64,000 nucleotides of DNA from Candidatus Latescibacterota bacterium (GCA_963707635.1 OY970173.1:2801489-2865488); one strand, 5' to 3'; positions 12,932 to 47,454 are shown, counted from the stretch's first letter. Numbers and translations are program-made. Notes: generated by a model not told the origin, from the letters alone.

Positions 12932-13106
12932 TGGTGGAGGCGGCGGGAATCGAACTTTCAAGAAGATGAAACACTAACCTGATGATGGCGCTCGATTTCG
13001 GACGATAAGAATTGAAACATCACAGGTTATACGAACGCCGCTTCTCCACCCCAGTCCTCTGCAGTCTACCGGAATCGACCCATGTCATGGAGACATTTTG
13101 GAGACG
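12932..13106 (-). repeat. Class I ssrA-3'-end-derived repeat element, copy A (~175 bp)
   Basis: Minus-sense 3' end GTTCGATTCCCGCCGCCTCCACCA is identical to the last 24 nt of ssrA (T-loop to CCA). The adjoining ~150 bp is conserved with copies B and C (shared blocks cctgatgatggcg, gatttcgg, cagtcctct, ggagacattttggagacg) but unrelated to the ssrA body. The T-stem 5' strand and acceptor 5' strand are absent, so it is not an intact tRNA or tmRNA. Confidence 0.7.
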
Positions 13107-13159
13107 AGAACAAGATATCGGGCATGCAGGACTTCATCCTCCAGCCTGGGTGCAACGGT

Positions 13160-13891
13160 TCAATTCCGGACGATCTTGCTGAGTTCTGCAAGCGTGGTCG
13201 CCCGGTAGCCCATCTCATCGAGGCGCGGAAGTACCCGATCGAGAACCTCGATCGTCCGTTTGCGGTTCGGCCGCCCGTCGTGCAGGACGAGGACGGCGCC
13301 AGGGCGAACATTCTCGAGGAACTGTTTGACCGTCAGACCGACACTGGTCCTGAGATCCATCGGGTAGGCCGTGGCCGCCACCGGCGTGTACCCGTTCTTC
13401 CGCATGATCCGGGCGATCCTCTTCGTTATCATGCCGCTTCCCGGACGGCACCAGCGGGGCGATCCGAGAGGCTGGATCAGCCTGTCGGTCCTTTTCAGTT
13501 CCTCGAGAAACTCTTCGTCCGACAGTGACGCGCTCATCCGGTCGGTAAAGAGGTGGTTGGCAAGTTCGTGTCCGTCGGAGCGGATGGATTCGACCAGTTC
13601 GGGATGCGCCTCTGCGTAGGAACCGATGATGAAGAATGTGGCCCTGGTCCGATGCTCGCGCAGCACGCGAAGAATTCCCGGAGTCACCTCGGGATGCGGT
13701 GCGTCATCGATGGTCAGTGCAATCAGGCGTTCCGTGGTGTCGATTCGAAATACAACATCGGGGTCGAGGCTGGATACGCGTGCGAGCAGCCAGTCACTCG
13801 GACGTACGAGCGTCCACGCACCAAGGGCTGCCAGCAGCAGAACCACGCAGGCGATCAGGATGAGGGTCACGTCACTCGCCGTCCACGACAC
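13160..13891 (-). CDS. Polysaccharide deacetylase (NodB-homology / CE4 family), membrane-anchored
   Basis: N-terminal transmembrane anchor; NodB-like motifs LTIDDAPHPEVT, RATFFIIGSYAEAHPELV, HELANHLFTD. Confidence 0.7.
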   Translation of the reverse strand: MSWTASDVTLILIACVVLLLAALGAWTLVRPSDWLLARVSSLDPDVVFRIDTTERLIALTIDDAPHPEVTPGILRVLREHRTRATFFIIGSYAEAHPELVESIRSDGHELANHLFTDRMSASLSDEEFLEELKRTDRLIQPLGSPRWCRPGSGMITKRIARIMRKNGYTPVAATAYPMDLRTSVGLTVKQFLENVRPGAVLVLHDGRPNRKRTIEVLDRVLPRLDEMGYRATTLAELSKIVRN

Positions 13892-13899
13892 TCACTTGA

Positions 13900-15093
13900 T
13901 CAGTAGATGAGGTGCTCCGATATGCTGCCGTACGGCGTCTGACGGCGGTTGTCGTAGTGGCGCTTGACGATCTGACCATTCTCACGCCGCAACAGACCCA
14001 CTTCGTCCAGAAGGCCAGGAGCGTGCGATGGTATCACGGTGTGGTTGCTCATGAGCCAGTGCAGCGCCGCGGGCATGCGAAGGAGGGCCACCGTCCGGTT
14101 ACCGGCTGCCAGCGCGGAAAGGAATTCCGGCATGGTCTTGGGTGAGATGCGGATCCGCTGCGGCTCCCCCAGTCCGGCTCGCTCGTGAATGCGCTGATTG
14201 GCCCAGTCCACCGACTGCAGCGCCATCGTGATGCACGACCGCTCCAGCAGCTGGTAGCGGACTTTCCCGTTGAGAATATCCTCGATCGGGTTCTCCGGAA
14301 CCTCTGCTTTCCTCGACTCCTTGGCCAGAGTCTCCCAGTCCTCGAGTTCCGCAGCCGGATAGCCATCAGGCATCTTGCGGCCCTCCTTTATATGTTCTTC
14401 CATGATGCTCAGGGTCGTCTGCCGCGAGACGGCATCAGCGAGAACGAGACTCACATACAACAGCTCGTTCTTCGCATTCTCAACATCGGGCAGGTTCAGA
14501 GGGTAGCAATGCCAGGGGCGGTCGAGTACGGCGTCGGCCACGCAGCGCACCGGACCCGCAAAGCACCTTGGGGTCAGTGCATACGTCGACGGATCCAAGC
14601 CCGCCACGGGGTCGAATGACGAAAGCGGCGGTCGCCACGCCTCCCAGCTCACGACGATGTCGTCGAGGACGGAATCGTTGGTGAAGGGCTGCCCGTCCGC
14701 TCCCAGCACGATCGGACGACGGTCCTCTCGGAAGGTGAAGCGTAGCATCCCGTGCCCCCCGGGCGATTCTCGGCCGGCAACCTTCGATATCACCATGACG
14801 AACTCGACGGACTCGACGGATTCCGCCCAGACCTTGACCGTACTGAGAAGGGTGATCCCTTCCACCGGATTGTTGAGAACGTTGACGTTTCGAACCAGAT
14901 AGTAATGTTCGGAACCAAAACCGGCCGACGAGGAGAGCCAACTGACGAACAGGGGCGCCATCGCCGCGGAAAGCCCGCTTGGGAGCTCGTCCTGCTGGGT
15001 TCTCACGCGAAGGACCGGACTGTAGGTGCGCTGCCACTTGAGAATATCGGCAGCAGTAACCACGCGACGTTTACTCGACGGCATTGTCATCAT
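13900..15093 (-). CDS. Hypothetical protein
   Basis: 397-aa ORF tightly packed between the deacetylase and ftsH on the same strand; no recognisable motif. Confidence 0.45.
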   Translation of the reverse strand: MMTMPSSKRRVVTAADILKWQRTYSPVLRVRTQQDELPSGLSAAMAPLFVSWLSSSAGFGSEHYYLVRNVNVLNNPVEGITLLSTVKVWAESVESVEFVMVISKVAGRESPGGHGMLRFTFREDRRPIVLGADGQPFTNDSVLDDIVVSWEAWRPPLSSFDPVAGLDPSTYALTPRCFAGPVRCVADAVLDRPWHCYPLNLPDVENAKNELLYVSLVLADAVSRQTTLSIMEEHIKEGRKMPDGYPAAELEDWETLAKESRKAEVPENPIEDILNGKVRYQLLERSCITMALQSVDWANQRIHERAGLGEPQRIRISPKTMPEFLSALAAGNRTVALLRMPAALHWLMSNHTVIPSHAPGLLDEVGLLRRENGQIVKRHYDNRRQTPYGSISEHLIY

Positions 15094-15094
15094 C

Positions 15095-17092
15095 CTAGCT
15101 CGCGCGCCGTGTTTCGGTTCCCGCTTGCGGCGCGAATCCGGTCACCTTCAGAATCTCCGGTTCATCCAGCGTCTCCTGCGCGAGCAGAGCCGTTACCAGC
15201 CTGTCGAGCTGCTGGCGATGCTGGACGAGCAGGCGCGTTGCTTCTTCGTGGCATTCGGAGATGATGCGCTGCACCTCCGCATCGATGAGCCGCGCGGTGG
15301 CGTCGCTGATGGGCTTCTCGCCCATGTACGCCGGAGACCCGCCAAGGTACGGATTGCCGGCGGGCGCCAGCTGTACCAAGCCCAGCTGATCGCTCATTCC
15401 CCAGCGCGTCACCATCATGCGCGTGATGTTGGTTGCCTGCTCGATGTCGTTCTCGGCGCCGGTGGTCCGGCTGCCGTACACGACTTCCTCGGCGGCGCGT
15501 CCGCCCAGCGTCCCGACGATACGCCCGCGCAGATACGACTCCGGATAGTTGTAGCGGTCGCTGATCGGCTGCTGGTACGTAACACCGAGCGCCTGGCCGC
15601 GCGGCACGATCGAGACGCGTTTCACCGGATCGGCCCCGGGAGTCACCAGCCCGAGGATGGTGTGCCCTCCTTCGTGGTAGGCGATGCGCTTGCGGTCTTC
15701 GCTGCTCAGCACGAGTGGACGCGTGGGGCCCAGGATGATCTTTTCCAGCGCGTCGAAGAAGTCTTTCATGTGCACGTTGTCCTGGCCGCGGCGCGCGGCC
15801 TGCAGCGCCGCCTCGTTCACGAGATTCTTGATGTCTGCTCCGGAGAGCCCGGTCGTTGCTCCGGCGATCTCGGCCAGATCGACGTCAGTCGCCAGCGGCA
15901 CCTTGCGCGTGTGTACTTTGAAGATTGCCTCGCGCCCTGTCTTGTCGGGAAGGTTGACGACCACGCGCCGGTCGAACCGGCCCGCGCGCAGCAGCGCCTT
16001 GTCCAGCGTATCCGGCTGGTTGGTCGCGGCGAGGACGATCACGCCTTCTCTGCTCGAAAAGCCGTCCATCTCGGAGAGGATTTGCTGCAGCGTTTGCTCC
16101 TGCTCGCCGACGCCGCCCATCACAACGGGACCACGCGCGCGACCAACCGCGTCGATCTCGTCGATGAAGATGATGGCGGGCGCGTGCTCGCGCGCCTGCC
16201 TGAACAGATCGCGCACGCGCGCAGCACCCACCCCGACGATCATCTCCACGAACTCGGAGGCACTCATGGAGAAGAATGGAACACCTGCCTCTCCCGCCAC
16301 CGCCTTCGCAAGCAGGGTCTTCCCCGTGCCGGGCGCGCCGACGAGGAGTACCCCTTTCGGAGCGGTTCCGCCCAGGCGCGTGTATTTCTCCGGCGCCTTG
16401 AGGAAATCGACGATCTCGACCAATTCGTTCTCGGCTTCGTCGATTCCCGCAACGTCGTCGAATGTCACTTTCGTGTCCGTGCTGGTGTCATATCGGCGAG
16501 CCTTGCTCGCGCCCAGACCCATGACGCCGCCCGCGCCGCCCTGGCGGCGGAGCATCCACGCGTAGAACGCGACTATCAGAATGGCCGGTCCGAACCCCAG
16601 GAGCATTGACAGCAACGGGTTGCCCTTTTGTATGGGCTCTGCGCTGATCTCCACGTCGTGGTCGATCAACAACGCCTCGAACCCAGGGTCCACGAAAGAA
16701 GGAAGCGTGGTCTTGAAATTGCGGCTCGCTCGTGCGCCACCGCCCCATGGCCGGTCCGGAGCAGCGCGGCTCGAATCCGCAGGAGGATAGGTCACCGGTT
16801 CTCGGAACCGGCCCTGGATGATCTCGCCTTTGCTGAAGACCTCTTCGACGTTGTCGCGCGCTACCTGCGTTTTGAAGAATGTGTAGGGAACCGTGGTGGC
16901 CGGTTCGGCACCAAGGAACACGCGCATCACGACGTAGTTGATGATCAGAAGGACCAGGAACGTGAGCCAGACTCGGCGCGGCGGCAGGCGTGGGCCGTCG
17001 CCCGACGAACCACGCGGCCCGGTCCCCGGGGCTCCACCGCGGCGCGTGATGGCAGGGCGCTGGCGTTGTTGGTCCTGATTAACGGTTTCCAT
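15095..17092 (-). CDS. ftsH: ATP-dependent zinc metalloprotease FtsH
   Basis: Two N-terminal TM segments; Walker [24 protein letters not shown]; AAA second region [15 protein letters not shown]; zinc site HEGGHTILG. Start set at internal ATG (METVNQ...). Confidence 0.9.
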
Positions 17093-17190
17093 AATCACTC
17101 CTGTGCACCCGGCACTGTGAATCCCACCGCGTTCCTGCAATTCACCAGGCATGGCGACATCTTGGAGACGACCGCGACATCCAATCCATC

Positions 17191-17952
17191 TCAGCCCGCG
17201 TTGCGCGGTTTGGCCGCCCACTCGGATTTCTTGCCTTGCATGCCGGGAGGCAGCGCGAGCCCGACGCGGTGGCGTGCGAAAGTGTCATCGCGATCGAGGT
17301 GGGCGAGCATGAGCGCGGCCGCATCGGAGTACGGAACGATCATCTGTGGGATCCAGCTCGCAAAGATCGGTAGCAGCAACGGGTCGGGGAGCGCGTGAGC
17401 ATCGACGGGAACCTCGACCGGCAGTGTATCCACCGCAATCCGCAGCCGGTTCAGGCCCAGAGCCGGCTCCTCTACCATTGGCCCCGGACACAGCAGGCGC
17501 CAGTCCAGGCCCGACCGACTGAGACGTTCGAAATTGACTCGGTGCGGCCAGTACGTGGACTCGACTTTGGGCAGGTCCACTCCTTTGCGACCGGAAGGGC
17601 CGATGTCCAGGATCGCCGCCCCCGCGAGGAACCAGCATACCGGTTGCGCGGGAGCCGGAAGTGACTCGACGGCGGTTACGAGACGGTCGACGAGGTCAAC
17701 GAAGGTTTGACCCTCCGTGACCATGCCGGCGCAATTTATGAGCGCATCGTGTCCGCTGATGAGCGCTGCGATGTCAACGGGCGCGACTGTGGAGAGATCG
17801 CCCTGGTGCACTGCGACTTGAGCCTGAGCCTCGAGCGGCAGCCTGGAAGGGGTGCGGACGGAAACGGTGACCTCGTGCCCGGCGGCCAACGCCAGGCGAA
17901 GCACGTGGCTACCCAGGGATCCCGTTGCACCAAAGATAACGAGACGAGACAC
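17191..17952 (-). CDS. NAD(P)-binding domain protein (NmrA / atypical SDR-like)
   Basis: GTG start preceded by GGGAGG; Rossmann motif IFGATGSLGSHV near the N-terminus. Confidence 0.55.
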   Translation of the reverse strand: MSRLVIFGATGSLGSHVLRLALAAGHEVTVSVRTPSRLPLEAQAQVAVHQGDLSTVAPVDIAALISGHDALINCAGMVTEGQTFVDLVDRLVTAVESLPAPAQPVCWFLAGAAILDIGPSGRKGVDLPKVESTYWPHRVNFERLSRSGLDWRLLCPGPMVEEPALGLNRLRIAVDTLPVEVPVDAHALPDPLLLPIFASWIPQMIVPYSDAAALMLAHLDRDDTFARHRVGLALPPGMQGKKSEWAAKPRNAG

Positions 17953-17975
17953 TTTCGATCCTCCCGGCACCGCGC

Positions 17976-19730
17976 CTACGGGTTGATCTCGAACCGCACA
18001 GACCGGAACGAGCCGATACCGTGATCGCTCTTGTAGACCGCCACACCGAAGATGAGCCCGGCGTCGAGGCGGTACGTATTCTGAGTCCACCCCTGGTACC
18101 CGGTCAGACGCCGTTCGCCATCGATCCACAGGTCGGCAGTCTTCAGCGCCGGGTCATAGATGATCTCGTATCGGTGATAGCCGCCAACGGGACTCTGCAT
18201 GAAGTCCATACCCCGAAACTCGGGAACGACCTGCGTGGGCAGGCGTACGATCTCCCGGTCGCCGTCCACAAATACCTGGACGGGAAATCCGAGGCCGCCA
18301 CCACCGAATTCGGCCGCCGCATAGGCCGCACCCGCTTCTGCCCTCAGCACGGCAGTCAGCTTCCAACCCCGATCCATCGCGCGCCGCGTCTCCGAGCTGG
18401 TGAAGGGATGGAAGTACAGCCCCCGACTGGGCGTCTCAAGGCGCCAGCCATCGTAGCCCGTGTGTGTCGGATTCTCGGTGACGCCAGTTCGCACCACTTC
18501 TTCGCGCACCTCGAAGCCCTCGGTGAGTGGGTCGAAGGCACCCACCTTCTCCACGATTCGGACCGGCTCCGCCCGGTCGCGCAGGATCGTCCTCTCGATG
18601 GCCGCTGCGGCGGCAAGGGCGATCGCCAACAGCGCGACGCCCACGGCGGCGCGGCGCACGCGCCGGCGCCCCGGCCCGAGCGTACCGGCCAGCGACTCGC
18701 TCCAGGCCTGAACGTCGGTGGGCCGCTCCTCCACCCGAAAAGCCAGCGCCGACTCCAGCGCCGCCCGGGTCTCGCGGCCCGTCGATGCGGGCAGCGCACG
18801 AACGTGCGGATACCCGCCGAGCATCTCACAGGCCACCAGCGCCATTGCATAGACATCGGAAGCGATCGAGTGTTTGCCTTCGAACTGCTCCGGCGCCATG
18901 TAGCGTACCGTTCCGGCGATCAGCACCGCCGTCGTTTCGGGTTCCAAATCCGAGCGGTCGATCTTAGCGATCCCGAAATCGATGAGTCGCACGATGTCAG
19001 CGCCGTCGTTGCGTGGCTGCAACATGATGTTCCCCGGCTTCAGGTCCCGGTGCGCAACGCCGGCGGTGTGCGCCGCGCCAAGGGCGCTCCCCATCTGCCG
19101 CAGGATTTCGGCCGCACGCGCTGGCGGAATGGGCCCCTGTGACAACAGCTCGCTCAGGCTCACGCCTGGAACGTACTGGATTACCAGAAAAGGCGAGCCG
19201 TCCTCGAGCTCGCCGACGTCCAAGATGCCCACGACCCCCGAATGATCGATTCGCGCGAGCGCATGCATCTCCTGCTCGAAGCGCGCTTTCAGCCAGTGGG
19301 ACCGGCGCCCTTCGACACGCATCACCTTGATCACGACCGGACGCATCGCCAGGTGCTGGTCATGCGCCAGGTAGACCAGCGCCTGCCCGCCCGTGGCGAG
19401 CTCCCGGTCGATGCGGTAGCGATTCCCCAACACCTGACCGCTGGTCAGACGTGCGGCGCTCGTCAGACCCTCCACGACCGATTGCCCGAGAGGTGACCAG
19501 GGAGGATCCTCGAGAAATCCGTCATCCGGCGTGTCCCCCGAAAGCAGTGCCTCCACCTCCGCCCGCAGCGCGCCGTCGCCTTCGCAGGCCAGGGTCAGGA
19601 ACGAATCTCGTTCGTCGCCGTCCAGCGCTCTCGCCGCCGTGAAGAGAGACGAGATCCGCTCCCACCGATCGTTCACGCCTGCGCTCAAGCCTTCAGCCTC
19701 GCATGGAGCCAGGACCGCGCAATGGCCCAA
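17976..19730 (-). CDS. Serine/threonine protein kinase with transmembrane segment and C-terminal extracytoplasmic domain
   Basis: Hanks-kinase motifs: ATGGQALVYLA...VVIKVM (ATP site), HRDLKPGNIML (catalytic loop), DFGIAK, APEQ. One TM helix (AAVGVALLAIALAAAAAI), then ~200 aa. Start uncertain: ATG at 19730 overlaps the sigma gene; TTG at 19688 or GTG at 19676 would couple to the sigma stop. Confidence 0.8.
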   Translation of the reverse strand: MGHCAVLAPCEAEGLSAGVNDRWERISSLFTAARALDGDERDSFLTLACEGDGALRAEVEALLSGDTPDDGFLEDPPWSPLGQSVVEGLTSAARLTSGQVLGNRYRIDRELATGGQALVYLAHDQHLAMRPVVIKVMRVEGRRSHWLKARFEQEMHALARIDHSGVVGILDVGELEDGSPFLVIQYVPGVSLSELLSQGPIPPARAAEILRQMGSALGAAHTAGVAHRDLKPGNIMLQPRNDGADIVRLIDFGIAKIDRSDLEPETTAVLIAGTVRYMAPEQFEGKHSIASDVYAMALVACEMLGGYPHVRALPASTGRETRAALESALAFRVEERPTDVQAWSESLAGTLGPGRRRVRRAAVGVALLAIALAAAAAIERTILRDRAEPVRIVEKVGAFDPLTEGFEVREEVVRTGVTENPTHTGYDGWRLETPSRGLYFHPFTSSETRRAMDRGWKLTAVLRAEAGAAYAAAEFGGGGLGFPVQVFVDGDREIVRLPTQVVPEFRGMDFMQSPVGGYHRYEIIYDPALKTADLWIDGERRLTGYQGWTQNTYRLDAGLIFGVAVYKSDHGIGSFRSVRFEINP

Positions 19731-20251
19731 TCCCGGTCCACGGTTCTGGGGTTCACTCCAAGAGCGCTCGCCACTTCGGGCACACTGAGTCCCGCAAAAT
19801 AGCGCAACTCCACGACACGAGCCTGGCGGGGTGAGAGCTTCTCGAGATCCGAGAGCGCTTCGTCCAGGTCCAGCAGCTCCACCGACTGCTCCTGACTGAG
19901 GCTCAAAGCGTGATCGAGCGAAAGCGCGGTTTGCTCACCCTCGCGCTTCTGTGCCTGCCGGTGGCGCGCGTGATCGATCAGGATCCTCCGCATGATGTTG
20001 GCGGCGGCGGCGTAGAAATGTGCCCGGTTCTCCCACGTGTGGTGTTCGTGGGCCACCAGCCGCATGTACGCCTCGTGCACCAGAGCGGTGGGCTGCAGAT
20101 CGCGACCGGGACGTTCGTGACGGAGCCGGGCTCGTGCCAGGTTTTTCAACTCGGGGTAGATCAGATCCATCAGTCGGGACGCGGCGGCGCCGTCACCCGG
20201 CCGAAACTCGCGCAGGAGAAGCGTCACCTGGGTGGCCCGTTCGCTGGTCAT
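19685..20251 (-). CDS. ECF-type RNA polymerase sigma-70 family factor
   Basis: Region 2-like (ALVHEAYMRLV...) and region 4 helix-turn-helix (RQARVVELRYFAGLSVPEVASALGVNPRTVDRDW). ATG at 20251 is preceded by GGGAGG; lies directly upstream of the kinase on the same strand. Confidence 0.75.
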   Translation of the reverse strand: MTSERATQVTLLLREFRPGDGAAASRLMDLIYPELKNLARARLRHERPGRDLQPTALVHEAYMRLVAHEHHTWENRAHFYAAAANIMRRILIDHARHRQAQKREGEQTALSLDHALSLSQEQSVELLDLDEALSDLEKLSPRQARVVELRYFAGLSVPEVASALGVNPRTVDRDWAIARSWLHARLKA

Positions 20252-22014: not shown

Positions 22015-22108
22015 TCGTCGTCGGCGTTACGCCATAAATGTCGAAGGAAGAACAATCGTCGCCAGCCGGCGGAACCGTCGTCCGGCGACACAACCTGGGA
22101 GGTAGATC

Positions 22109-22825
22109 ATGGTGGAGATGCTGGCGCGCAACTGGGGATGGGTGCTGATGCGCGGGATCGCGGCGATACTGTTCGGCATGCTCACGCTCTGCAATCCGGG
22201 AATCGCACTGACGACGCTCGTCATGCTCTTTGGCGCCTACGCGCTCCTCGACGGCGTCTTTATAGCGGTGTCGGCGGTCGCGAACCGGAAGGGCCAGTCG
22301 CGCTGGGTGGCACTGCTGGTGGGCGGGATCCTGGGGATCGCGGTCGGCATCCAGACCTTCCTGATACCGAGCCTCACGGCGGCCGCTTTGGTAGCATTCA
22401 TCGCGATCTGGTCAATCATCATCGGCATCACCGAGATCGTGGCGGCAATCACGCTGCGCAAGGTGCTCTCGGGCGAATGGATGCTTATGCTCGCCGGCCT
22501 GGCGTCGGCCGCCTTCGGCGTATTCCTCATCGCGCGTCCGTCGCTGGGGGCCCTGGCAGTGGTGCTTTGGATCGGCGCCTCGGCGATGGTATCGGGGATC
22601 CTGCTTATCGCGCTGGCCTTCCGACTGCGCAGCTGGGGCCGCAGTCCGGCCATCGCGGCACTCACCGCGCGCGCAGCAGCGTGGCGTGCCGGCGTAGTGT
22701 ACAAACTCGCGAGCCCGCGGCCGCCACGGAGCGGCCGCGTCGCTTCCAGGCCGCGTGTGACGGCATTTCGCCGGCGGCCGCGAGGTTCATCGAGAGTCCC
22801 TCAGCACACGAAGGAGACTCATTGA
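22109..22825 (+). CDS. HdeD / DUF308-like membrane protein
   Basis: Repeated small-residue TM helices (GIAAILFGMLTL, LFGAYALLDGVFI, ...). The Arg-rich C-terminal ~60 aa look non-native; the stop may be displaced. Confidence 0.55.
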   Translation: MVEMLARNWGWVLMRGIAAILFGMLTLCNPGIALTTLVMLFGAYALLDGVFIAVSAVANRKGQSRWVALLVGGILGIAVGIQTFLIPSLTAAALVAFIAIWSIIIGITEIVAAITLRKVLSGEWMLMLAGLASAAFGVFLIARPSLGALAVVLWIGASAMVSGILLIALAFRLRSWGRSPAIAALTARAAAWRAGVVYKLASPRPPRSGRVASRPRVTAFRRRPRGSSRVPQHTKETH

Positions 22826-22847
22826 GTAGCTCAAAGGAGGAACAATC

Positions 22848-23345
22848 ATGTACGGATTCAAAGCGTTCGTGTTCAATGGCAAGAAGACGGCCAGCAAGGC
22901 TTACGATACTCTCGAAGAGCACATGCCGGTCTACCCGTGGATTGATGACGCCGCCGTGGTGTCGAAGAACAAGCTCGGCTTCACCCGGGTTTACAGCACC
23001 TGGGCGCAGGACGACACCGCGGTCGGCGTCGGAACCGGTCTCGGCGTAGTGACCGGTGCCCTGCTCGGAGCCATTCTGGGGCCCGGCGTCGCTGCGGCGG
23101 GAGCCGCGGTGGGTGGTTCAGTGGGCGCCGTGTCCGGCGCGGTCGGCGAAAGCGTCCTCAGCGACCCGCGCTTGGACGACTTTGCGGCGTCGCTCGCGAA
23201 GGACACCTCGGCGTTGATTCTGGTCGGCGAGAGAGCCTCGATCCTCGACTTCACCTCGGCGGTCGCGCCCTACGGTGGAAAGATCATCGAGACCAACCTC
23301 GACGAGAAGGACGTCAAGGCCCTGAGGAAGTCTCTCAAGAAGTAG
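22848..23345 (+). CDS. DUF1269-like membrane protein, second paralogue
   Basis: Same N-terminal pattern as 20403..21203 (MYGFKAFVFNGKKTASKAYDTLEEH...) plus a Gly/Ala zipper segment. Confidence 0.55.
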   Translation: MYGFKAFVFNGKKTASKAYDTLEEHMPVYPWIDDAAVVSKNKLGFTRVYSTWAQDDTAVGVGTGLGVVTGALLGAILGPGVAAAGAAVGGSVGAVSGAVGESVLSDPRLDDFAASLAKDTSALILVGERASILDFTSAVAPYGGKIIETNLDEKDVKALRKSLKK

Positions 23346-23488: not shown

Positions 23489-23533
23489 GGTTGGTGGAGG
23501 CGGCGGCGAGCGAAGCGAAGCTCAGAGCCGACC
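23489..23533 (-). repeat. Class II ssrA-3'-end-like 45-bp repeat, copy B2 (identical to 28973..29017)
   Basis: ggttggtggaggcggcggcgagcgaagcgaagctcagagccgacc read identically at both loci; the minus-sense 3' end ...CGCCGCCUCCACCA matches the ssrA acceptor end. Confidence 0.7.
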
Positions 23534-23563
23534 TCTGGCTTGTGTTCTACACAAACAGAGTTT

Positions 23564-23737
23564 GGTGGAGGAGGCGGGAATCGAACTCTGTCGATGGAGA
23601 AACTCTAACACGTTGATGGCGTGTGGTTTCGGATGCTACGAGTTGAAACATCGCCAGTTAGGTGACCGCTGCTTCTCCACTCCAGTCCTCTGCAGTCTTC
23701 TGGAATCGACCCACGTCATGGAGACATTTTGGAGACG
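23564..23737 (-). repeat. Class I ssrA-3'-end-derived repeat element, copy B (~175 bp)
   Basis: Core tggtggaggaggcgggaatcgaac has one mismatch to the ssrA 3' end; arm conserved with copies A and C up to ggagacattttggagacg; preceded by the small inverted repeat tgtgttctacacaaacagag. Confidence 0.7.
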
Positions 23738-23760
23738 CCACGCAGCGTTCGCTCGGGACG

Positions 23761-25245
23761 TTAGTGCTGCGTGGGCAGATCTGAGGAATGTAGCAGCTCC
23801 ACAACCAGCCGCTGCTCCTCGTTGCCTCCCTCGTCGTGCCACCGAACGCGCGTGATCTGGATGGACCGGTTCGTGATCCACAGCGGATCGGACACGGCCC
23901 ATTCGGAGCCATCGAGTAGGCACCACGAATCACCCGTCGCGGCGTCCGCAATCCACAGGTCGGCCGCAATGGTGTCGCCCACGTGGTGCAGCCGTGTCGG
24001 ACGCGAGAATGCAATCCACCGCCCATCCCGGCTCCAGGAGAATTCATGCGACGCGCCCACCTTCAGACTGTCGATAACCGTTACTCGGGCATCGGGAACG
24101 GTGACAGTGTAGAGAAGGGCTCCGCTCCACTTGCGGGAGATGCCGCTTACTGCGATGGTGCGTGAGTCCGGCGACCACTTCGATTCAGTCCCGTCGGTGA
24201 GGTCGCCTTCCATGACGATCTTGGACGCCGTCACGTCGACCACCGTCAATTGATAGGGATTCAGATGCGATTTCCAGACCACGCAGCTAAGGCAGCGGCC
24301 GTCCGGCGACCATTGAGGCAAGGACGCCGGCGTCTCTAGCAAACGGCGCGATTCTCCAGTCGCGACATCGACGATCTCCACGTAACCCCTGCGCGAAACA
24401 ATCACGACGCGTGCAACCAGAGAGTCCGGCCCAGGCACGTAGTTTCGGTCCGACGACGACCGGAGATAATCCGTTTTTGTTTCGAAGGGGACGTCGTCAG
24501 CCCACGGCTCTCGCAAAGCCACGACTTTCCACGGATTCACGGACGCGTGATTGCGGACTGCGCTGCACTTGACGGCAGTCAGGAGCAGACTTTCGTCGCC
24601 CGGCGCAAACTCTCCAACGGCGACATCGTCCAATCCGAAGCTCGCCCCGTTCTTCCCCACGACGCGGAAGCCAAACTGAACCTTCTTGCCGGCCCACGCC
24701 GACAGATCGACAAAACGTTCGCGGTAGATGAATGGATCCGCCGGTGACTCATTGCCAGTGATCGACCAGAGAGACGTCCAGCCTGTCGTACCCGCTTCAC
24801 GAATGTTGAGCGATCCATCGAGCACACTCGACCACTGCGTATTCCCGGACCAGGAAAACTTGATTGCCTTGTCGGTCGCTCCGAGCGCCACCACCGGCGT
24901 GATCAGCCACTCGTCGATAGCTCTCGGTGACTCGCTTCCGACATACGCCGCCGCGCTCCCGGTTCCAATGTTGTCGGGATCGGTGGTTCGGTGCCAGGCG
25001 TGCGGCAGAGGCAGGCCTGCGCTCTTCGTGCTCCAGCCCGGCGGCGGAAAGGTTGCGCCCTCGAATCCCTCCGCCAGTGTGGCTGGCGGTACACGTCCCG
25101 CCGGTACCGCCGACTGGGATCGTTGGGAAGCAGCCAACGGCGTGCATTCTGGTACTCCGTGGGCGTTGCCGACGATGAACGTGGGAACGCTGAGGAGAAG
25201 CCCGGCAATAAACGCCTTCATAAGGAGTGTCATGGGTCGCTTCAT
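23761..25245 (-). CDS. Secreted PD40 / TolB-like beta-propeller repeat protein
   Basis: Signal peptide (MKRPMTLLMKAFIAGLLLSVPTFIVGNAHG); repeated WSPDGR / WSPDSR / WSRDGR motifs. Start uncertain (ATG at 25296, 25245 or 25233). Confidence 0.6.
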   Translation of the reverse strand: MKRPMTLLMKAFIAGLLLSVPTFIVGNAHGVPECTPLAASQRSQSAVPAGRVPPATLAEGFEGATFPPPGWSTKSAGLPLPHAWHRTTDPDNIGTGSAAAYVGSESPRAIDEWLITPVVALGATDKAIKFSWSGNTQWSSVLDGSLNIREAGTTGWTSLWSITGNESPADPFIYRERFVDLSAWAGKKVQFGFRVVGKNGASFGLDDVAVGEFAPGDESLLLTAVKCSAVRNHASVNPWKVVALREPWADDVPFETKTDYLRSSSDRNYVPGPDSLVARVVIVSRRGYVEIVDVATGESRRLLETPASLPQWSPDGRCLSCVVWKSHLNPYQLTVVDVTASKIVMEGDLTDGTESKWSPDSRTIAVSGISRKWSGALLYTVTVPDARVTVIDSLKVGASHEFSWSRDGRWIAFSRPTRLHHVGDTIAADLWIADAATGDSWCLLDGSEWAVSDPLWITNRSIQITRVRWHDEGGNEEQRLVVELLHSSDLPTQH

Positions 25246-25544
25246 TGGATCATCGTGCGAGTGCGACAGGTCGCTGCATAACCTTCGCCATTTCACGACC
25301 AGAAGGGACCGCTGAAAGGTGCTGCAGAGGTGCGTTCAATGCAGAGTGTCCGCGGAGTAGTTAGCTAACGCGGCGATGCCACCCAAGCGACGACTAGATA
25401 CGAAGCGGCGGGAACTGCGGAAACGCGGATTTCGTCATGGAAACGGCGAGCGGCATAAGTTGTTCACGCTTCAGCGGTTGGTTACAATGGCACGCAAGTC
25501 GCGCTTCGCGCGAGCACTCATAACTCTATACGAATACACAAGAA

Positions 25545-25719
25545 ATGGTGGAGGCGGCGGGAATCGAACCCTGTTGCGAACGAAACATTAACCTGATGAT
25601 GGCGTGCGATTTCGGTTGTTGTGAGTTGAGAGATCGCAGGTTAGTTGACCGCCGCTTGTCCACTTCAGTCCTCTTGAGTCTACCGGACTCAACCCACGTC
25701 ATGGAGACATTTTGGAGAC
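25545..25719 (-). repeat. Class I ssrA-3'-end-derived repeat element, copy C (~175 bp)
   Basis: Core tggtggaggcggcgggaatcgaac identical to the ssrA 3' end; arm conserved with copies A and B; lies in the divergent region between the PD40 gene and the M36-like protease gene. Confidence 0.7.
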
Positions 25720-25914
25720 GGGTTTGACCTTCGCCCTTGTGCGGAGTTACTTTTATGGTGAATTGCCAGTCGGTTCTCGCCCGTCTCCGGGCAAAGATGT
25801 GGGCTTGAAAGTGTCCACCGTTCGGATTACGCTGCCTGCATTCCGGCCCGGTGATTTCATTCCGGAGACCTCCTTTCTTGCGGTTAACTCCAGGCGGCCA
25901 TCGGCCCAAGGAGC

Positions 25915-28836
25915 GTGACGCGCTTGCCAACTCCGCGCGATTTCATCCTGCACCGCAGTTTCTTCGCCATGCTCGTACTGGCGGTCCCGCTCTTCCCGGC
26001 GCTGCTCTCCGCGGCAGAGAACGCGACCTCGACGGCCGTTCCTGCTCCGGCCGCGCCCGTGCGCCATGCGCCGTCGATTGATCGCAACGCCATCCAGGCC
26101 GCCGTTCAGGAATTCCAGTCTTCCCAGTCACCCCGCTGGACGGTGTCGTGGGACCCGGTGAGCGGTCTCCCTCGAATGCTGACTGGCCAGACCACGCGCT
26201 CCTACGGGGCCACATCGGAAGCCGCCGCGCTGGCATTCGCTGGCGAGCATCGGATGCTTCTGGGCTTGATCGATGAGAAACACTCGGTGCGCCTGGTTGG
26301 AACGAAACTCATGCGCACCCAATGGCGCGTAACGCTGCAACAACAATTCGCCGGGATCGACGTCCTCGATGGGACGATTCAGGTGGTCGTGGACGGGAAA
26401 GGCCGCGTCCTATATGTGACAAACTCGGCGTGGCCGGTTTCCGCCGTCGATTTCTCGATCGATGTCGGTGAGAGCGCCGTACGCTCCTCGATCGCCCGGC
26501 GGTTCAGTGGCGAAGACGTCACCTACAATGACGGACCCCGCCGCGTGATCTACCCATCCGGGAATGGGCGGCTCGCGTATGTGGCGTACGTGCTCGCCGG
26601 CCCGCAGGGGCCGTGGCGCGTCCTCGTCGATGCGCGGACGGGCGGCATCCTGGAAGCGCGGCGGTTGGTGGTCGAGGAGAAGCAGGCCCCATCGCAGGAT
26701 GCCGCGACGCAGCAGAATCCGTCGCGCCCCGCGGACGTCGCCGACGTCAATGATCCGTGTGCCCGCGAGTGGAACGAGATGGGGGGAGCCGCGGTGATCG
26801 AGGTCCCGGATCCTGCAGACCCGTACTATGTCGACGTAAAGGTTGGCGTGCCCGGTCTCGGCGAGTTTCAACCGCAGGGGATCGGGACGTCCGCTGCGGG
26901 GATCAAACTCTTTCCGTGCATTTATTACACAATCCAGGTCGACTACAACGTGCACACCTGGGGTGGCTGGAATACTCCCAACGGCTTCCGTGATGTCTTC
27001 TTCGTCAACGTCAACAACATGAACTGGTACTGGAATCTCGGGCTCATTCCGCAGGCGCAGCTGTTCTGTACGACCGCCTACAACGACATGGGACTGATTC
27101 TCCCCGGCAAGGCCTGGGTCGCCGGCGGGAATCGATGCGGCGACGGCCTCTTGTGCGATCTGGTGGGATCGTTCCAGTTCGACATCATCGAACCGAACAA
27201 CACCAAAGAGCTCTATCTCTCGGTTGGGATGCAGCGGGTCTCAGTTTCGTGTCCGTCATGGGGGACCATCCGGGTCAAGATCATCGCGAAGTCCCGTGTC
27301 TTCGACCCCAACCCGGTGACCACGCTGAACCAGCCCTTCACGGACCAGGATGACGCCAACGAAGCCGTTCCCTGCGACGCGTACATCGGCGTCGACCTTC
27401 CGAATCTTACCCCGCCGCCGCCCGGGCAACCCTGGACTCTCACGGGCGACTATTGCGAGATCGTGGACATCACGGCCCCTGCCAAAACGTACACCTCGGC
27501 GCGCGACCCGAATTTCCCCTATCTGCGCCGGTGCGACATGTTCGAAGCGGTGAATGCCTACTACCACATCACGACCAACCAGCTCTACATCCAGTCTCTC
27601 GGTTTTACCGGCCTTTCCGGCATCAACAACCGCGCGCATCGCGTGGACCCGCATGGGATGGATCACGTGGACAACTCGCAATACGTCGGTAATCCCCCGG
27701 GACTTGGCTACATCGAGTTCGGCGAGGCCTTTGTCGACGACGCCGAAGACGCCGACGTGATCCTCCACGAGTACGGCCACTCGATTCAGGACAACCAGAC
27801 ATTCGGCTATTACCTCGGGACTGGCGCAGGCAACGGCTTCGGCAACGAGACGTGGGCGATGGGCGAGGGGTTCGCCGACTACTGGGCGTGCAGCAACTTT
27901 GCCGACGAGAGTACCGCGAGCGGCTTCGACCCCGCCGCGTACGGCGAGTGGAACAAACAGAACATGACCGGGACCCGCAGGGTCGACAAGAACAAGATCT
28001 ATCCGACGAATATGGAAAGCGAAGAACACGCCGACGGAGAGATCTGGTCGCGCACGCTGTGGGACCTCTTTCAGGCAGTCGGGAAGACGACCTCTGACGT
28101 GCTCATACTGGAGAGTCACTATCTCGTTCCTTCACGTCCATTGTTCAGCGACGGCGCCAAGGCGTTGATTGCAGCGGACGCAGTTGCCAACGCGGGCGCC
28201 AACAAGAATACGATTGTCGCCATCTACGTCGATCGCGGCATCTTCCGTAGTCTCGCCGTTGCATCGTCGCCCATCAACGGCGTGCCGATCACCGTGTCGA
28301 GGCAGGACGTACGTGGCGATCAAAGTGATGCCACCGACTTCAACCGGACGTATGCGTGGGGGGACTCGGTATCGCTCGACGCACCGCCCTCGTTTGGCGA
28401 CCGTACTTTCACGCGCTGGGATGTGGACGGCGTCGCGGGTGCGAACGGCGACTTGACCGCCGTCGTGCGCATGGACGAATCGCCACCATTTCACTCGGCC
28501 ATCGCTTACTACGATACTCTCCCTGGCGACCCCGGCACGCCCGTCCGTGACATCCCGAAAGCCCTGGCGCTGCTTCAGAATCACCCGAACCCGTTCAACC
28601 CGACGACGACGATCACGTTCACGTTGCCGAGGGAGATGGAGATCGAGCTTTCGGTGTTCGACGTGGCGGGCCGGCGGGTGGCCACACTCCGGAGCGGACG
28701 CGAACGGGCAGGCGTCTATGCCGTGGTGTGGGATGGACGGAGCGCGGCCGGTGAGACGGTGAGCTCGGGCGTGTACATCTACCGGTTGCGAGCGGGCCAA
28801 ACGGTTCTGACGAGGAAGATGACACTACTCAAGTAG
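25915..28836 (+). CDS. Secreted zinc metalloprotease, fungalysin/thermolysin-like (M36/M4-like), with T9SS-type C-terminal sorting domain
   Basis: HExxH site VILHEYGHSIQ with a downstream Glu motif GEGFADYWA, resembling fungalysin HEYTHG...EGWSD. C-terminus LLQNHPNPFNPTTTITF...VFDVAGRRVATL...WDGRSAAGETVSSGVYIYRL...RKMTLLK. GTG start at 25915 (ATG alternative 25969). Confidence 0.65.
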   Translation: MTRLPTPRDFILHRSFFAMLVLAVPLFPALLSAAENATSTAVPAPAAPVRHAPSIDRNAIQAAVQEFQSSQSPRWTVSWDPVSGLPRMLTGQTTRSYGATSEAAALAFAGEHRMLLGLIDEKHSVRLVGTKLMRTQWRVTLQQQFAGIDVLDGTIQVVVDGKGRVLYVTNSAWPVSAVDFSIDVGESAVRSSIARRFSGEDVTYNDGPRRVIYPSGNGRLAYVAYVLAGPQGPWRVLVDARTGGILEARRLVVEEKQAPSQDAATQQNPSRPADVADVNDPCAREWNEMGGAAVIEVPDPADPYYVDVKVGVPGLGEFQPQGIGTSAAGIKLFPCIYYTIQVDYNVHTWGGWNTPNGFRDVFFVNVNNMNWYWNLGLIPQAQLFCTTAYNDMGLILPGKAWVAGGNRCGDGLLCDLVGSFQFDIIEPNNTKELYLSVGMQRVSVSCPSWGTIRVKIIAKSRVFDPNPVTTLNQPFTDQDDANEAVPCDAYIGVDLPNLTPPPPGQPWTLTGDYCEIVDITAPAKTYTSARDPNFPYLRRCDMFEAVNAYYHITTNQLYIQSLGFTGLSGINNRAHRVDPHGMDHVDNSQYVGNPPGLGYIEFGEAFVDDAEDADVILHEYGHSIQDNQTFGYYLGTGAGNGFGNETWAMGEGFADYWACSNFADESTASGFDPAAYGEWNKQNMTGTRRVDKNKIYPTNMESEEHADGEIWSRTLWDLFQAVGKTTSDVLILESHYLVPSRPLFSDGAKALIAADAVANAGANKNTIVAIYVDRGIFRSLAVASSPINGVPITVSRQDVRGDQSDATDFNRTYAWGDSVSLDAPPSFGDRTFTRWDVDGVAGANGDLTAVVRMDESPPFHSAIAYYDTLPGDPGTPVRDIPKALALLQNHPNPFNPTTTITFTLPREMEIELSVFDVAGRRVATLRSGRERAGVYAVVWDGRSAAGETVSSGVYIYRLRAGQTVLTRKMTLLK

Positions 28837-28900
28837 TCCGCGTCTGATCGAAGCGGCGCACAGAGCCAACGCATGGTCCTCGTTCGACGAGAACAGGGTT

Positions 28901-28936
28901 TGGCGGAGGCAGCGGCTGGCGCGGAACGCGCTGCTC
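28901..28936 (-). repeat. Degenerate tRNA-3'-end-like fragment (E3) next to ssrA
   Basis: Minus-sense GAGCAGCGCGUUCCGCGCCAGCCGCUGCCUCCGCCA: T-arm-like hairpin plus a CCUCCGCCA end resembling the ssrA acceptor end. Confidence 0.3.
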
Positions 28937-28972
28937 AAAGCCCACCTCAGGTTTGTGTCTTACACAAACAGA

Positions 28973-29017
28973 GGTTGGTGGAGGCGGCGGCGAGCGAAGC
29001 GAAGCTCAGAGCCGACC
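28973..29017 (-). repeat. Class II ssrA-3'-end-like 45-bp repeat, copy E2 (identical to 23489..23533)
   Basis: Same 45-mer as B2; lies 28 bp from the ssrA 3' end; preceded by the inverted repeat tttgtgtcttacacaaacagag. Confidence 0.7.
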
Positions 29018-29044
29018 GGAGGCTTACTGTTAGTAAGCATGGGT

Positions 29045-29416
29045 TGGTGGAGGCGGCGGGAATCGAACCCGCGTCCGAAGAAGCAGCCGCAACGGTTACT
29101 ACGTGTGTAGTCCGTGGTGATTTCTCATCTCCGTACCCACCGCGGACGAAAGTGTAACGGAGACCAGCCCGGTAGTTTCTCGCGCCTCAGCCCCAGACAT
29201 AGCCTCGGCGCCAGCCCCCAGAGTATGACGCCCACTCACCGGCCCTGGAGACCCAGCCGGTGGGGACGGGAGCCTAAGCTAGCTTAGCTAGTTAGGCAGC
29301 CAGTGCGACGTTGTTGTCAGCACTTGAATTGGTGCCACCTGGTTTTACGAGGCTTGTGACCTGGCTCGACACGCAACCGGTACGCCCATCTTCCCCGTCG
29401 AGACCTGTTCGCCCCC
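29045..29416 (-). ncRNA. ssrA: tmRNA (transfer-messenger RNA, SsrA), standard one-piece form
   Basis: Minus-sense 5' end GGGGGCGAACAGGUCUCGACGGGG resembles the tmRNA 5' consensus. 3' end GCGGGUUCGAUUCCCGCCGCCUCCACCA is a perfect T-arm, 7-bp acceptor stem pairing with the 5' end (G3:U70, discriminator A) and encoded CCA. Internal tag reading frame ...GCU GAC AAC AAC GUC GCA CUG GCU GCC UAA encodes ...ADNNVALAA-stop. Confidence 0.9.
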
Positions 29417-47451: not shown

Positions 47452-47454
47452 AGT

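Follow-up and report, generated by a model that had tools for sequence, protein, structure and literature searches.

The region between 12.9 and 29.4 kb of the 64,000-nucleotide stretch of DNA analysed here (the window) raises the question of why the 3' end of the tmRNA gene ssrA recurs several times on one side of that gene. ssrA lies at 29045..29416 on the minus strand; it had been called unambiguous and indeed the ARAGORN call (tag ADNNVALAA) and the Rfam match (RF00023, 180.6 bits, full model) agree. The 26-mer at its end, GGGTTCGATTCCCGCCGCCTCCACCA, matches four times in the window, where none is expected (none in 100 shuffles): at 29045, which is ssrA itself, at 25546 (copy C) without a mismatch, and at 12932 (copy A) and 23563 (copy B) with two mismatches each. 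When only the final 24 nt of ssrA are considered, A and C match perfectly and B differs at a single position, as described in the original prediction; of the three starts given there, 12932 stands, whereas those of B and C, 23564 and 25545, are wrong by 1 nt. Likewise, the copies share the orientation of ssrA (minus strand throughout) and sit on its 3' side. The 26-mer is absent from the four other tRNAs of the window, and the link to ssrA therefore holds against the objection that a generic tRNA end is repeated. The block of identity extends from G(G)GTTCGATT in the T loop to the CCA, and upstream of it the copies are unlike ssrA. An intact target gene is accompanied by three displaced 3' fragments in direct orientation, each reaching from the T stem/loop to the end of the gene.

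Each fragment is the end of a 175-nt element (12932-13106, 23563-23737 and 25546-25720), and the pairwise identity of 79-82% bears out the claim that about 150 bp, without similarity to the part of ssrA that precedes the T loop, are conserved among the copies. In element C (25546..25720, minus strand), a putative attR-type site, the arm block CGTCTCCAAAATGTCTCCATGAC (25698-25720) is followed by four 10-bp GnGGAC repeats (25656-25695), an IHF-like box CCATCATCAGGTTAA (25588-25602) and the core, the last 24 nt of ssrA (25546-25569), which is exact over 26 nt in all. Element B (23563..23737, minus strand) has the same layout, with the arm block at 23715-23737, the repeats at 23673-23712, the IHF-like box at 23605-23619 and a core at 23563-23586 that carries one G>T mismatch. 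In element A (12932..13106, minus strand), the copy farthest from ssrA, these features are found at 13084-13106, 13042-13081, 12974-12988 and 12932-12955, the last with all 24 nt exact. In each of the three full copies, both arm block and repeats are intact. A fourth copy, truncated and degenerate (CGTCTCCAAGATGTCGCCATGCCTGGTGAATTGCAGGAAC...), was detected by nhmmer with the family profile at 17124..17170 on the minus strand (E = 0.0013), between the gene for an NAD-binding protein and ftsH; it covers profile positions 2-51, that is the first ~50 nt with the arm block and the first repeats but without the core, and contains a one-mismatch match to GTCTCC-N5-GTCTCC. A second T-loop-like motif near the 5' end of the element, GGGTCGATTCC, was considered and is merely the first of the four 10-bp repeats.

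The element is a member of a family. A 19-mer from the arm block retrieved 3 genome-contig loci and 75 metagenome loci, about 60 of which are true homologues, and had no match in viral contigs; when arm and T loop were combined in a gapped pattern, the outcome was a single distant, AT-rich candidate (L094) besides two chance matches. Length (~177 nt) and layout are constant among the homologues, which come from metagenomes and MAGs, and an alignment of 48 of them is nearly gapless. The order is always GTCTCC-N5-GTCTCC, four GnGGAC repeats, the IHF-like ATCA-N5-TTA and the T-loop-to-CCA segment. The GTCTCC pair is invariant, with a spacing of 11 nt, and in every element precedes the core by ~150 nt; the four repeats are spaced by exactly 10 nt, and within the repeat the G at position 3 and the A at position 7 occur in 44-48 of the 48 sequences. 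The ATCA-N5-TTA box agrees as a sequence match with the IHF consensus, WATCAANNNNTTR. The 3' segment, on the other hand, varies and resembles the tmRNA, tRNA-His, tRNA-Ser, tRNA-Gln and others. Where the upstream gene is visible, the segment is the end of that gene, a tRNA-His gene 3.4 kb upstream in L011 and a tmRNA gene 2.9 kb upstream in L021; in these loci the element is tied to a tDNA and not scattered without such a link. An all-against-all BLASTP of the ORFs of ~65 loci revealed no shared neighbour protein, the largest cluster being an antisense ORF over the element itself.

Integrases were said to be missing from the window, and this was confirmed: Pfam found no recombinase, including Phage_integrase, resolvase and serine recombinase, in the scanned window ORFs, a profile built from 12 full-length integrases of the family gave no match at E <= 10 in a six-frame hmmsearch, and neither an int nor a xis gene is present in the 64 kb. 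Outside the window the picture is different. Intact tyrosine integrase genes are convergent to a tmRNA gene in L084 (15-nt gap) and L092 and to a tRNA-Gln gene in L088 (10-nt gap); contigs L083 and L085 end beside int, and the break falls inside a tRNA-His-like or tmRNA 3' end. The enzymes have ~360-385 aa (full-length proteins 357-387 aa). In intact elements int is located directly past the target gene and faces it, so close that only 5-15 nt separate its stop codon from the CCA end. An HTH_17 gene is the usual upstream neighbour of int and was found directly upstream in three contexts; this small gene is read as a putative Xis-type gene. Remnants of integrases adjoin elements or target tRNAs in L011, L020, L026, L034, L044, L066, L079 and L080-82; an integrase gene is part of the island in L084, L088 and L092 and, as a remnant, in L011, L044, L066 and L080. 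GTCTCC-N5-GTCTCC occurs again, in the same orientation, 45-70 nt past the core in the 3' end of int in L026, L082, L083 and L084, where the last int codons that contain it encode G-D-x-x-E-T; degenerate pairs are present on this P' side in L020, L044 and L066. In the family, arm-type repeats of one consensus are thus found on both arms, far from the core. In the window, only the P-arm copies are present: the exact GTCTCC-N5-GTCTCC is confined to the three P-arm blocks, and no P' arm motif pair follows ssrA or any copy. Since an intact integrase and a P-arm element at opposite ends of one island were seen on no contig examined, junctions and remnants are the evidence that suggests the link between element and integrase.

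Two further candidates were rejected. The top 120 matches to a 77-aa integrase remnant are all 68-133 aa long and the substitutions in the remnants are biased to third codon positions (105:33:419), but a conserved functional 'mini-integrase' is not tenable: representatives at 50% identity show every fragment length beside full-length proteins, the remnants retain different extents of the profile, the one in L082 has an internal deletion and the one in L079 has lost the catalytic Tyr. A split integrase as in SSV1 was dismissed as well; because the core is past the stop codon, recombination leaves int uncut.

A unit of fixed length with a sharp 5' boundary and a CCA end could also be an RNA, and a structured-RNA repeat with a borrowed tRNA-like end had been named as the alternative. 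The element would then be a structured or tRNA-like sRNA gene, or an mRNA leader or trailer, whose T-arm/acceptor/CCA mimic is processed by RNase P, RNase Z or the CCA-adding enzyme. Copy A ends, as stated before, 26 nt ahead of the ATG at 12905 (gene 12318-12905), which would suit a leader, and with the three window copies only, RNAalifold predicted a long-range helix, GTGGAG..GCGGCGG, with the 3' end. This helix, however, is paired to 58.3% compared with 56.6% in shuffles, and on the 48 homologues RNAalifold gave 3 trivial pairs at -2 kcal/mol. The covariation score of 0.093 is within the range of shuffled and slid controls, the T-stem 5' strand is replaced in most copies, and Rfam returned nothing more than a 13-nt, 10.9-bit sub-threshold partial tmRNA match; neither a covariance-model match nor a covarying fold with intact T arm and acceptor stem was found. 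The exact 10-bp periodicity and a motif pair that lies on both sides of the core, on one side inside a coding gene, point to recognition of double-stranded DNA. The RNA reading is largely refuted, and we consider it highly improbable. The lack of a conserved fold and of covariation, together with the integrase-linked layout, argues for a P arm plus core (attR) instead.

Could the element simply be a non-autonomous transposable repeat, MITE- or REP-like, that ends in or prefers tRNA-like sequence and is independent of integrase islands? It is a discrete unit of ~177 nt with sharp ends and many copies per genome (at least 4 in the window, 4 across L021/L047), and numerous homologues lie close to contig ends. 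Terminal inverted repeats and target-site duplications are lacking, though, no transposase is associated, the 3' end switches to fit the local tDNA, every copy is oriented as the tDNA and placed on its 3' side, and the element is physically joined to the 3' ends of integrases. Such an origin is highly improbable in our view.

Altogether, the region from 12.9 to 29.4 kb is likely a tandem array of genomic islets that arose by successive integrations into the T-loop-to-3'-end segment of ssrA and is now debris without an integrase. The original prediction, a series of site-specific integrations into the 3' end of ssrA, is supported, and the ~150 conserved bases find their explanation as the P arm of one family of tyrosine-integrase elements. 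ssrA is the integration target and carries the present attL-side copy of the core; the 175-bp element is, on this reading of its motifs, the attR of a lambda-type attachment site, a ~150-bp P arm with the displaced last 24-26 nt of ssrA. The lambda attP carries Int arm sites, Xis sites and IHF sites on its P arm. The family shares with it the length of the P arm (~150 bp), a single arm-site consensus on P and P', phased direct repeats in the middle of the P arm, an IHF-like box between arm sites and core, and an int gene next to P'. In contrast to lambda with its intergenic attB, the target here is a tDNA T loop, the P' sites are within int, and int is convergent with the target.

The repeat anatomy, the conservation in the family, the tDNA-matched ends and the linkage to an integrase family are observed; the assignment of the motifs to proteins is inferred. 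The arm-binding domain of the integrase would recognise GTCTCC-N5-GTCTCC on both arms, on P at the end distal to the core. The four GnGGAC repeats may be bound cooperatively, along one side of the double helix, by Xis or by additional Int protomers, and the ATCA-N5-TTA box may bind IHF or HU, by which the arm would be bent back to the core. Strand exchange would take place within the T-loop region. Islands would insert serially into the T-loop-to-3' segment of ssrA, the newer pushing the older outward; int, xis and the P' arm sites would later be lost and the cargo retained by the host.

The cargo differs from segment to segment. Next to ssrA is a secreted M36-type metallopeptidase with a FlgD_ig/Por_Secre_tail C-terminus (25915..28836, plus strand). 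The segment from C to B (1983 bp) has one gene only, for a 511-aa protein with a weak PD40 match (23761..25296, minus strand). Between B and the truncated copy (17191..23345) Pfam identified DUF1269, DUF308, rhomboid and again DUF1269 proteins on the plus strand and an ECF sigma factor, a Ser/Thr kinase and the NAD-binding protein on the minus strand, and no recombinase. The segment from the truncated copy to A (13160..17091, minus strand) encodes an ftsH paralogue, a 397-aa protein without assigned function and a polysaccharide deacetylase, and is conserved beside an element in L074 and L061. The retained cargo is mostly secreted proteases, envelope or signalling genes. GC3 is 0.69-0.83 in the array genes and 0.86-0.94 in housekeeping genes elsewhere in the window (33-41 and 48-64 kb). 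Beyond copy A, fusion of 12318-12905 and the M6 peptidase ORF into one frameshifted gene was rejected; these are two genes, because the peptidase has its own downstream signal peptide.

Relatives have similar arrays with other cargo and other copy numbers (L021 with L047/L054; L074; L061; L008), and no empty ssrA site was recovered among them. The element shares 78% identity with that of L061, where synonymous sites of the neighbouring gene share 87%, and 81% with that of L074, where synonymous sites share 72-74%; resident copies show no consistent excess conservation. The closest labelled relatives of the lineage are Candidatus Krumholzibacteria MAGs.

No islet in the window has an integrase, and neither have most of those in related loci; either integrases were lost repeatedly or the integrase-less cassette is the normal state. 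The islets might still be mobile, CIME- or integron-like: a cognate integrase, supplied from another place in the genome or by an incoming element, would recombine the retained cores, and single-gene segments would be excised, shuffled or captured at ssrA. The preserved cores of A, B and C, the intact arm blocks and repeats of three full copies, the single-gene segment between C and B, the cargo that varies among relatives and the recurrence in L011 and L021 of islets that have no integrase and lie between a tDNA and an element all fit, and CIMEs are an accepted concept (PMC5704250, PMC3146451). CIMEs of streptococcal ICE/IME tandems are likewise decayed, have lost integration and transfer genes and form tandems at tRNA gene 3' ends (PMC5704250), just as the int-less islets here do. 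By definition, however, a CIME keeps functional attL and attR (PMC5704250), whereas here attR-type sites are kept and the P' pair of the intact integrases is missing after ssrA and after every copy. Canonical attL x attR excision would therefore be one arm short, and the mobility of the islets is doubtful. Moreover, int and xis are lacking throughout the 64 kb, one copy is truncated, and no consistent excess conservation is seen in the resident copies. Integron arrays have an integron integrase with attI beside them and attC sites that form imperfect hairpins; here, no integrase is found near ssrA and the element has no conserved single-strand fold. We regard continued mobility as unlikely; since the window lacks an integrase, a Xis gene and P' arm sites, the array is most probably fixed, immobile debris of serial integration.

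The locus does not reveal a new kind of system but belongs to the known tandem tDNA islands. In the Islander survey, attP sites of the T-stem-region class are the commonest, and among the targets enrichment is highest for the tmRNA gene; an island is counted only with its own integrase, and tandems of three or more are rare, with 4 in the survey (PMC4383910). Islander/TIGER islands and the array have in common an intact tDNA followed by displaced direct 3' fragments, an identity block from the T loop to the 3' end, tyrosine-integrase chemistry (here in relatives) and the displacement of older islands by newer ones; they differ in that the islets here are all without an integrase and in the P arm, which is a recognisable 150-bp family conserved in metagenomes. 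Dehalococcoides has multiple, tandem ssrA islands within 100 kb downstream of the gene, with direct repeats of the ssrA 3' end (McMurdie et al. 2011, PMC3146451); some are without an integration module, and the authors discuss possible cis-mobilizable elements (PMC3146451). Tandem islets behind ssrA, direct repeats of its end and the missing integration module are also seen here. The Dehalococcoides islands, however, have a CcrB-like serine recombinase module next to attL and a 20-bp repeat, whereas the present family has a tyrosine integrase with an HTH_17 gene, a repeat of 24-26 nt that begins in the T loop, and a P arm that is long and structured; a CcrB-like module was absent from the scanned window ORFs, and the family in relatives is a tyrosine recombinase. 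Tycheposon islands of Prochlorococcus, according to the parts of the account used here, lie beside a few tRNA genes and the tmRNA gene, grow by repeated integration, harbour partial tRNAs and broken integrases left over from earlier insertions and carry small adaptive cargo (bioRxiv 10.1101/2020.12.28.424599). Islands at tRNA and tmRNA genes, serial integration and integrase remnants are thus shared; tycheposons belong to another phylum and apparently have other integrases, and no conserved 150-bp arm with phased repeats is described in those parts of the account.

Islands that insert serially and then lose their integrases are a known route to bacterial accessory genes, and at this locus an uncultivated soil/sediment lineage stacks accessory genes behind one essential RNA gene. 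A complete attachment site could be reconstructed from nucleotide sequence, from the arm sites on P and P' through the phased repeats and the IHF-like box to the core in the T loop, and the integrase family is widespread in metagenomes. The 177-nt profile flags island boundaries that are invisible to integrase-dependent tools such as Islander, and the shifting tRNA/tmRNA targets may be of interest for integrases with new site specificities. It is tempting to speculate that P arm plus core is a portable site, by which an integrase in trans captures, stacks and exchanges integrase-less cassettes of one to a few genes at ssrA and other tDNAs. This is rather improbable, but if true, it would be a tDNA-anchored analogue of the integron cassette array across Krumholzibacteriota-like and Acidobacteriota genomes.

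A one-crossover history does not fully account for the flank of the sites, a hairpin plus a short unit that is found after ssrA and also after elements. The two shorter ssrA-end-like repeats and the degenerate third reported earlier were recovered at 23489-23541, 28973-29025 and 28902-28954, the first two being 94% identical. Each such repeat closes a unit of ~72-75 nt, in which a hairpin is followed by GGTCGGCTCTGAGC and this in turn by 15-17 nt from the end of ssrA. Directly 3' of ssrA, two units of ~72 nt with a terminator-like hairpin are arranged in tandem (28902..29044, minus strand), the second degenerate and followed by a third hairpin, and one unit (hairpin, GGTCGGCTCTGAGC, CGCCGCCGCCTCCACCAACC) comes directly after element B (23489..23562, minus strand).

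The tmRNA gene ssrA, located concordantly by ARAGORN and Rfam at 29045-29416 on the minus strand, is a standard one-piece gene. The window has four matches to its last 26 nt (GGGTTCGATTCCCGCCGCCTCCACCA), every one on the minus strand: the gene's own end, an exact copy at 25546, and copies at 12932 and 23563 that each differ at two positions (both within the first three bases, or one of them inside). No such match arose in 100 dinucleotide-preserving shuffles. Repeat finding and alignment revealed that each extra copy terminates a 175-nt element at its 3' side, namely A (12932-13106), B (23563-23737) and C (25546-25720). The elements are 79-82% identical in pairwise comparison and have no relation to ssrA 5' of the T loop, which bears out the original observation of a conserved ~175-bp repeat. 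A profile built from homologues detected a fourth copy between an NAD-binding gene and ftsH, comprising only the first ~50 nt (17124-17170, minus strand). The shorter ssrA-end repeats noticed previously are also real and form the ends of ~72-75-nt units, in which a terminator-like hairpin and GGTCGGCTCTGAGC precede 15-17 nt of the ssrA end. There are two such units behind ssrA, of which the second is degenerate, and one behind copy B. Short hairpin units were also found 3' of elements in several relatives. They may be island-borne substitutes for the ssrA terminator, displaced in turn, or may be scars of a second element type whose 15-17-nt core reaches into the ACC flank. The array as a whole most probably consists of tandem islets from successive integration into the ssrA 3' end.

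An ssrA-like end could be a generic feature of the element, but this was ruled out by ends that match the local target gene. The commonest end in the family is tmRNA-like (CCGCCGCCTCCACCA); others are tRNA-His-like (CCCGTCACCCACCCCA), tRNA-Ser-like (CCCTGCCTCACCGCCA), CCCTGCCTCCCAGCCA, CCCGTCCACCCCGCCA, CTTTCTTCCGCACCA and more variants. Given enough flanking sequence, the end agrees with the upstream gene. In locus L011, an element with the His 3' end (~4739-4866) follows tRNA-His(GTG) (1233-1307), and the islet holds cargo alone, bestrophin-like and response-regulator genes. In L021, the gene 2.9 kb upstream of the element, on the same strand, is a tmRNA gene, likewise with the tag ADNNVALAA; here, too, the islet is cargo alone (DUF1565 beta-helix and Big_2 proteins). 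Element ends that track the upstream tDNA are the signature of an attL/attR pair.

Homologues were sought with a 19-mer of the invariant 5' block. The search returned three MAG contigs labelled Acidobacteria and 75 metagenome loci, ~60 of which are true homologues; the 19-mer had no match in viral contigs. The 48 distinct full-length members gave a near-gapless alignment, and nearly all of them span ~177 nt between the 5' block and the CCA end. The block, CGTCTCCAAAATGTCTCCATGAC, holds GTCTCC(A) twice in direct orientation at a spacing of 11 nt; that it is invariant in this set is owed partly to the search with that block, and variants such as CGTCTCCACAATATCTCCACGAC (L082) retain both hexamers. 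Then follow four repeats with an exact spacing of 10 nt and the consensus nnGnGGACnn; for every repeat, 44-48 of the 48 sequences have G at position 3 and A at position 7. GGnGAC is nearly the reverse complement of GTCTCC. After ~45 weakly conserved bases with a TAAC/TAAG motif comes GAAGTCGCGCGCCATCA-N5-TTAG. The IHF consensus is WATCAANNNNTTR, which the ATCA-N5-TTA core matches in ATCA, spacing and TTR. The element closes with ~20 variable bases, the T loop, the 3' strands of the T-stem and acceptor stem and usually CCA. The GTCTCC-N5-GTCTCC pair is also borne by the AT-rich contigs L094, L007, L023 and L059; in L094 (1326-1489; IMG/VR UViG 650716068_000001), a tRNA-like 3' end follows it at ~140 nt, and a distantly related integrase is encoded upstream on the opposite strand. 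Integrases of a much wider clade, in low-GC organisms, may have this arm motif in common.

The earlier suggestion that the element could be a structured-RNA repeat was not supported. Rfam was empty in the elements save for a 13-nt, 10.9-bit tmRNA T-arm match in copy C. RNAalifold predicted a helix of GTGGAG..GCGGCGG with the 3' end from the three window copies, and the consensus fold shrank to three invariant pairs with 48 homologues. The helix was paired in 58.3% versus 56.6% in column shuffles and, in covariation, was no different from slid controls. GTGGAG is simply the last of the four 10-bp repeats. Most copies have another sequence in place of the T-stem 5' strand (CAGGG for GCGGG), so that a tRNA-like arm cannot form.

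No protein family is common to the element neighbourhoods. By tblastn and profile search, however, C-terminal remnants of a tyrosine recombinase (HRLRHTFCSHLAMRGAPARAIQELAGHxDLxTTQRYMHLSP...) were found near the cores, the tDNA segments from T loop to CCA. They are convergent with the core, with the stop codon 10-25 nt past the CCA end, and lie 3' of elements in L044, L066, L034 and L080/82 and 3' of tRNA-Asp in L026 and L079. The remnant in L020 (3853-4026) is distant from that locus' truncated copy and adjoins a separate tmRNA-like 3' end that has no upstream arm block; a more distantly related one follows tRNA-His in L011, ~105 nt past the CCA end. In a first search of protein databases, the best 120 matches were all short ORFs (68-133 aa); representatives at 50% identity comprise fragments of every length and full-length proteins of 357-387 aa. 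Convergent with the integrase gene (int) are an intact tmRNA gene in L084 (gap 15 nt), tRNA-Gln in L088 (gap 10 nt, int preceded by a small HTH_17 gene that we read as Xis-type) and a tmRNA gene in L092, an IMG/VR predicted provirus. HTH_17 and int also occur together around the integrase P0153 and in L083, a contig that stops within a tRNA-His-like 3' end; L085 has int and stops within a tmRNA 3' end. None of the contigs examined holds a complete island with intact int at one end and an element at the other.

The idea of a dedicated small gene was rejected for the remnants: their profile matches start variously at position 272, 284, 289, 296, 302 or 315, the L082 remnant has an internal deletion, and P0094 (L079 10001-10255, beside tRNA-Asp) has lost the catalytic tyrosine (RYMH to RSMH). 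Judged by sequence, the remnants are decay products, and the change in P0094 reads as direct evidence of decay after truncation. The island 5' of the element in L044 (1571-4791) holds DUF4062 and DUF6602 genes, which may be defence-type cargo; it also carries a second, unrelated integrase fragment at 5724-6329.

On the int side of the core, the P' arm, GTCTCC-N5-GTCTCC recurs in tDNA orientation 45-70 nt past the core, within the last int codons. In the int reading it is GGAGAC-N5-GGAGAC, at 716-732 in L026, 10286-10302 in L082, 2294-2310 in L083 and 1720-1736 in L084; L020, L044 and L066 have degenerate pairs, L085 and L088 variant hexamers. The pair codes for G-D-x-x-E-T, conserved in an otherwise variable C-terminal tail, and therefore a constraint on the DNA site appears as protein conservation. 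Spacing and orientation of the motif pair are identical on both sides of the crossover region, at distances of ~150 nt and ~55 nt. Arm-type integrase sites of lambda-type attP likewise place a motif of the same spacing and orientation on both sides of the crossover. Three features argue for recognition of double-stranded DNA: repeats phased at 10 bp, an IHF-like box and an HTH_17 gene that is Xis-like. These sequence features support an intasome-type architecture, within which we infer the assignment of proteins to motifs.

In ssrA orientation, ORFs and Pfam place the two short units directly after ssrA and then, on the opposite strand, an M36 metallopeptidase gene. Element C comes next and is separated from element B by a single 511-aa gene. 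B and its short unit are followed by seven genes (DUF1269, DUF308, rhomboid, DUF1269, ECF sigma factor, Ser/Thr kinase, NAD-binding protein) that lead up to the truncated copy. From there to element A the genes are, in order, an ftsH paralogue, one for a 397-aa product of unknown function and one for a polysaccharide deacetylase; beyond A are the genes of a secreted protein of 196 aa and of an M6 peptidase. As noted previously, no integrase was found: recombinases of every class are missing from the 39 window ORFs analyzed with Pfam, the other ORFs, at 6-2897, 36.6-41.5 and 47.5-64 kb, having been classed as housekeeping or secreted from translations alone, and a six-frame hmmsearch of the window with a profile of 12 full-length family integrases gave no match at E <= 10. 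GC3 is 0.69-0.83 for genes at ~6.5-33 kb versus 0.86-0.94 for housekeeping genes at 33-41 and 48-64 kb, which fits accessory DNA without being decisive. A (V)YDV(A/S)GR(L/R)V motif, conserved in a C-terminal sorting domain, is common to at least four large secreted proteins (D8 repeats at 2708-2737, 28653-28682, 35176-35205 and 46499-46528).

Under the standard model, each newcomer would enter the intact gene and push older elements outward; copy A would then be the oldest and copy C the youngest. Relatives have arrays of this kind with other contents. In L021 followed by L047/L054, a tmRNA gene and two short units lead into a truncated copy, a full copy and two further full copies; the series closes with a truncated copy, and the homologue of the window's BNR gene (7462-8526) comes directly after it. 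L074 reads element-397aa-ftsH but lacks the deacetylase and the 17.2-22.1 kb genes, and L061 keeps deacetylase-element with a different downstream flank. L008 has the element between two M6-peptidase paralogues; at 1-1165, it separates a peptidase 3' end (94% identical to 9758-10337) from the beginning of a gene homologous to that of the 196-aa secreted protein (68% to 12647-12932), and M6-peptidase paralogues thus seem to have been exchanged repeatedly at this locus. An empty ssrA site was not found in relatives. Within the 64 kb, exact GTCTCC-N5-GTCTCC pairs are confined to the three P-arm blocks, ~150 bp before the core, with a one-mismatch pair in the truncated copy; all int genes, xis genes and P' pairs are missing from the array. 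Resident copies have no consistent excess conservation over synonymous sites of neighbouring genes. We therefore interpret the array as debris, now fixed, from four or more integrations; that the cores are still usable by an integrase supplied in trans is a minority possibility.

Tandem islands bounded by tDNA fragments are well described; the tmRNA gene is a target that they favour, and their crossovers fall most commonly in the T-stem region (PMC4383910). Dehalococcoides has ssrA arrays with integrase-less members (PMC3146451), CIMEs are described in streptococci (PMC5704250), and Prochlorococcus islands are full of partial tRNAs and fragmented integrases (bioRxiv 10.1101/2020.12.28.424599). 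The window array is a new family of this known kind. It is distinguished by an attachment site reconstructed from sequence alone, by P' arm sites within int and by its presence in MAGs assigned to two phyla. The window RNase PH is 79-81% identical to proteins of MAGs labelled Candidatus Krumholzibacteria.

A second array of the same kind, lacking both integrase and 175-nt arm element, occupies 42932-47529 (minus strand) at tRNA-Lys(CTT) (47455-47529). Partial 3' copies of the tRNA start from the anticodon loop (~46764-46812) and the D arm (~44044-44110) or comprise the last 8 nt (42932-42956), and every one of them has the downstream terminator hairpin in a copy of its own. The intervening segments hold a 150-aa gene and the genes of an 850-aa repeat protein with a T9SS-type tail and of an aldo-keto reductase. 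ORF 44130-46682 encodes a secreted protein with a FlgD_ig/Por_Secre_tail C-terminus; within the ORF, DNA repeats of 162-165 nt in six to eight tandem copies (44384-45600, plus strand) specify a repeated ~54-aa module (…SDGAGGAIVAW.D.R…).
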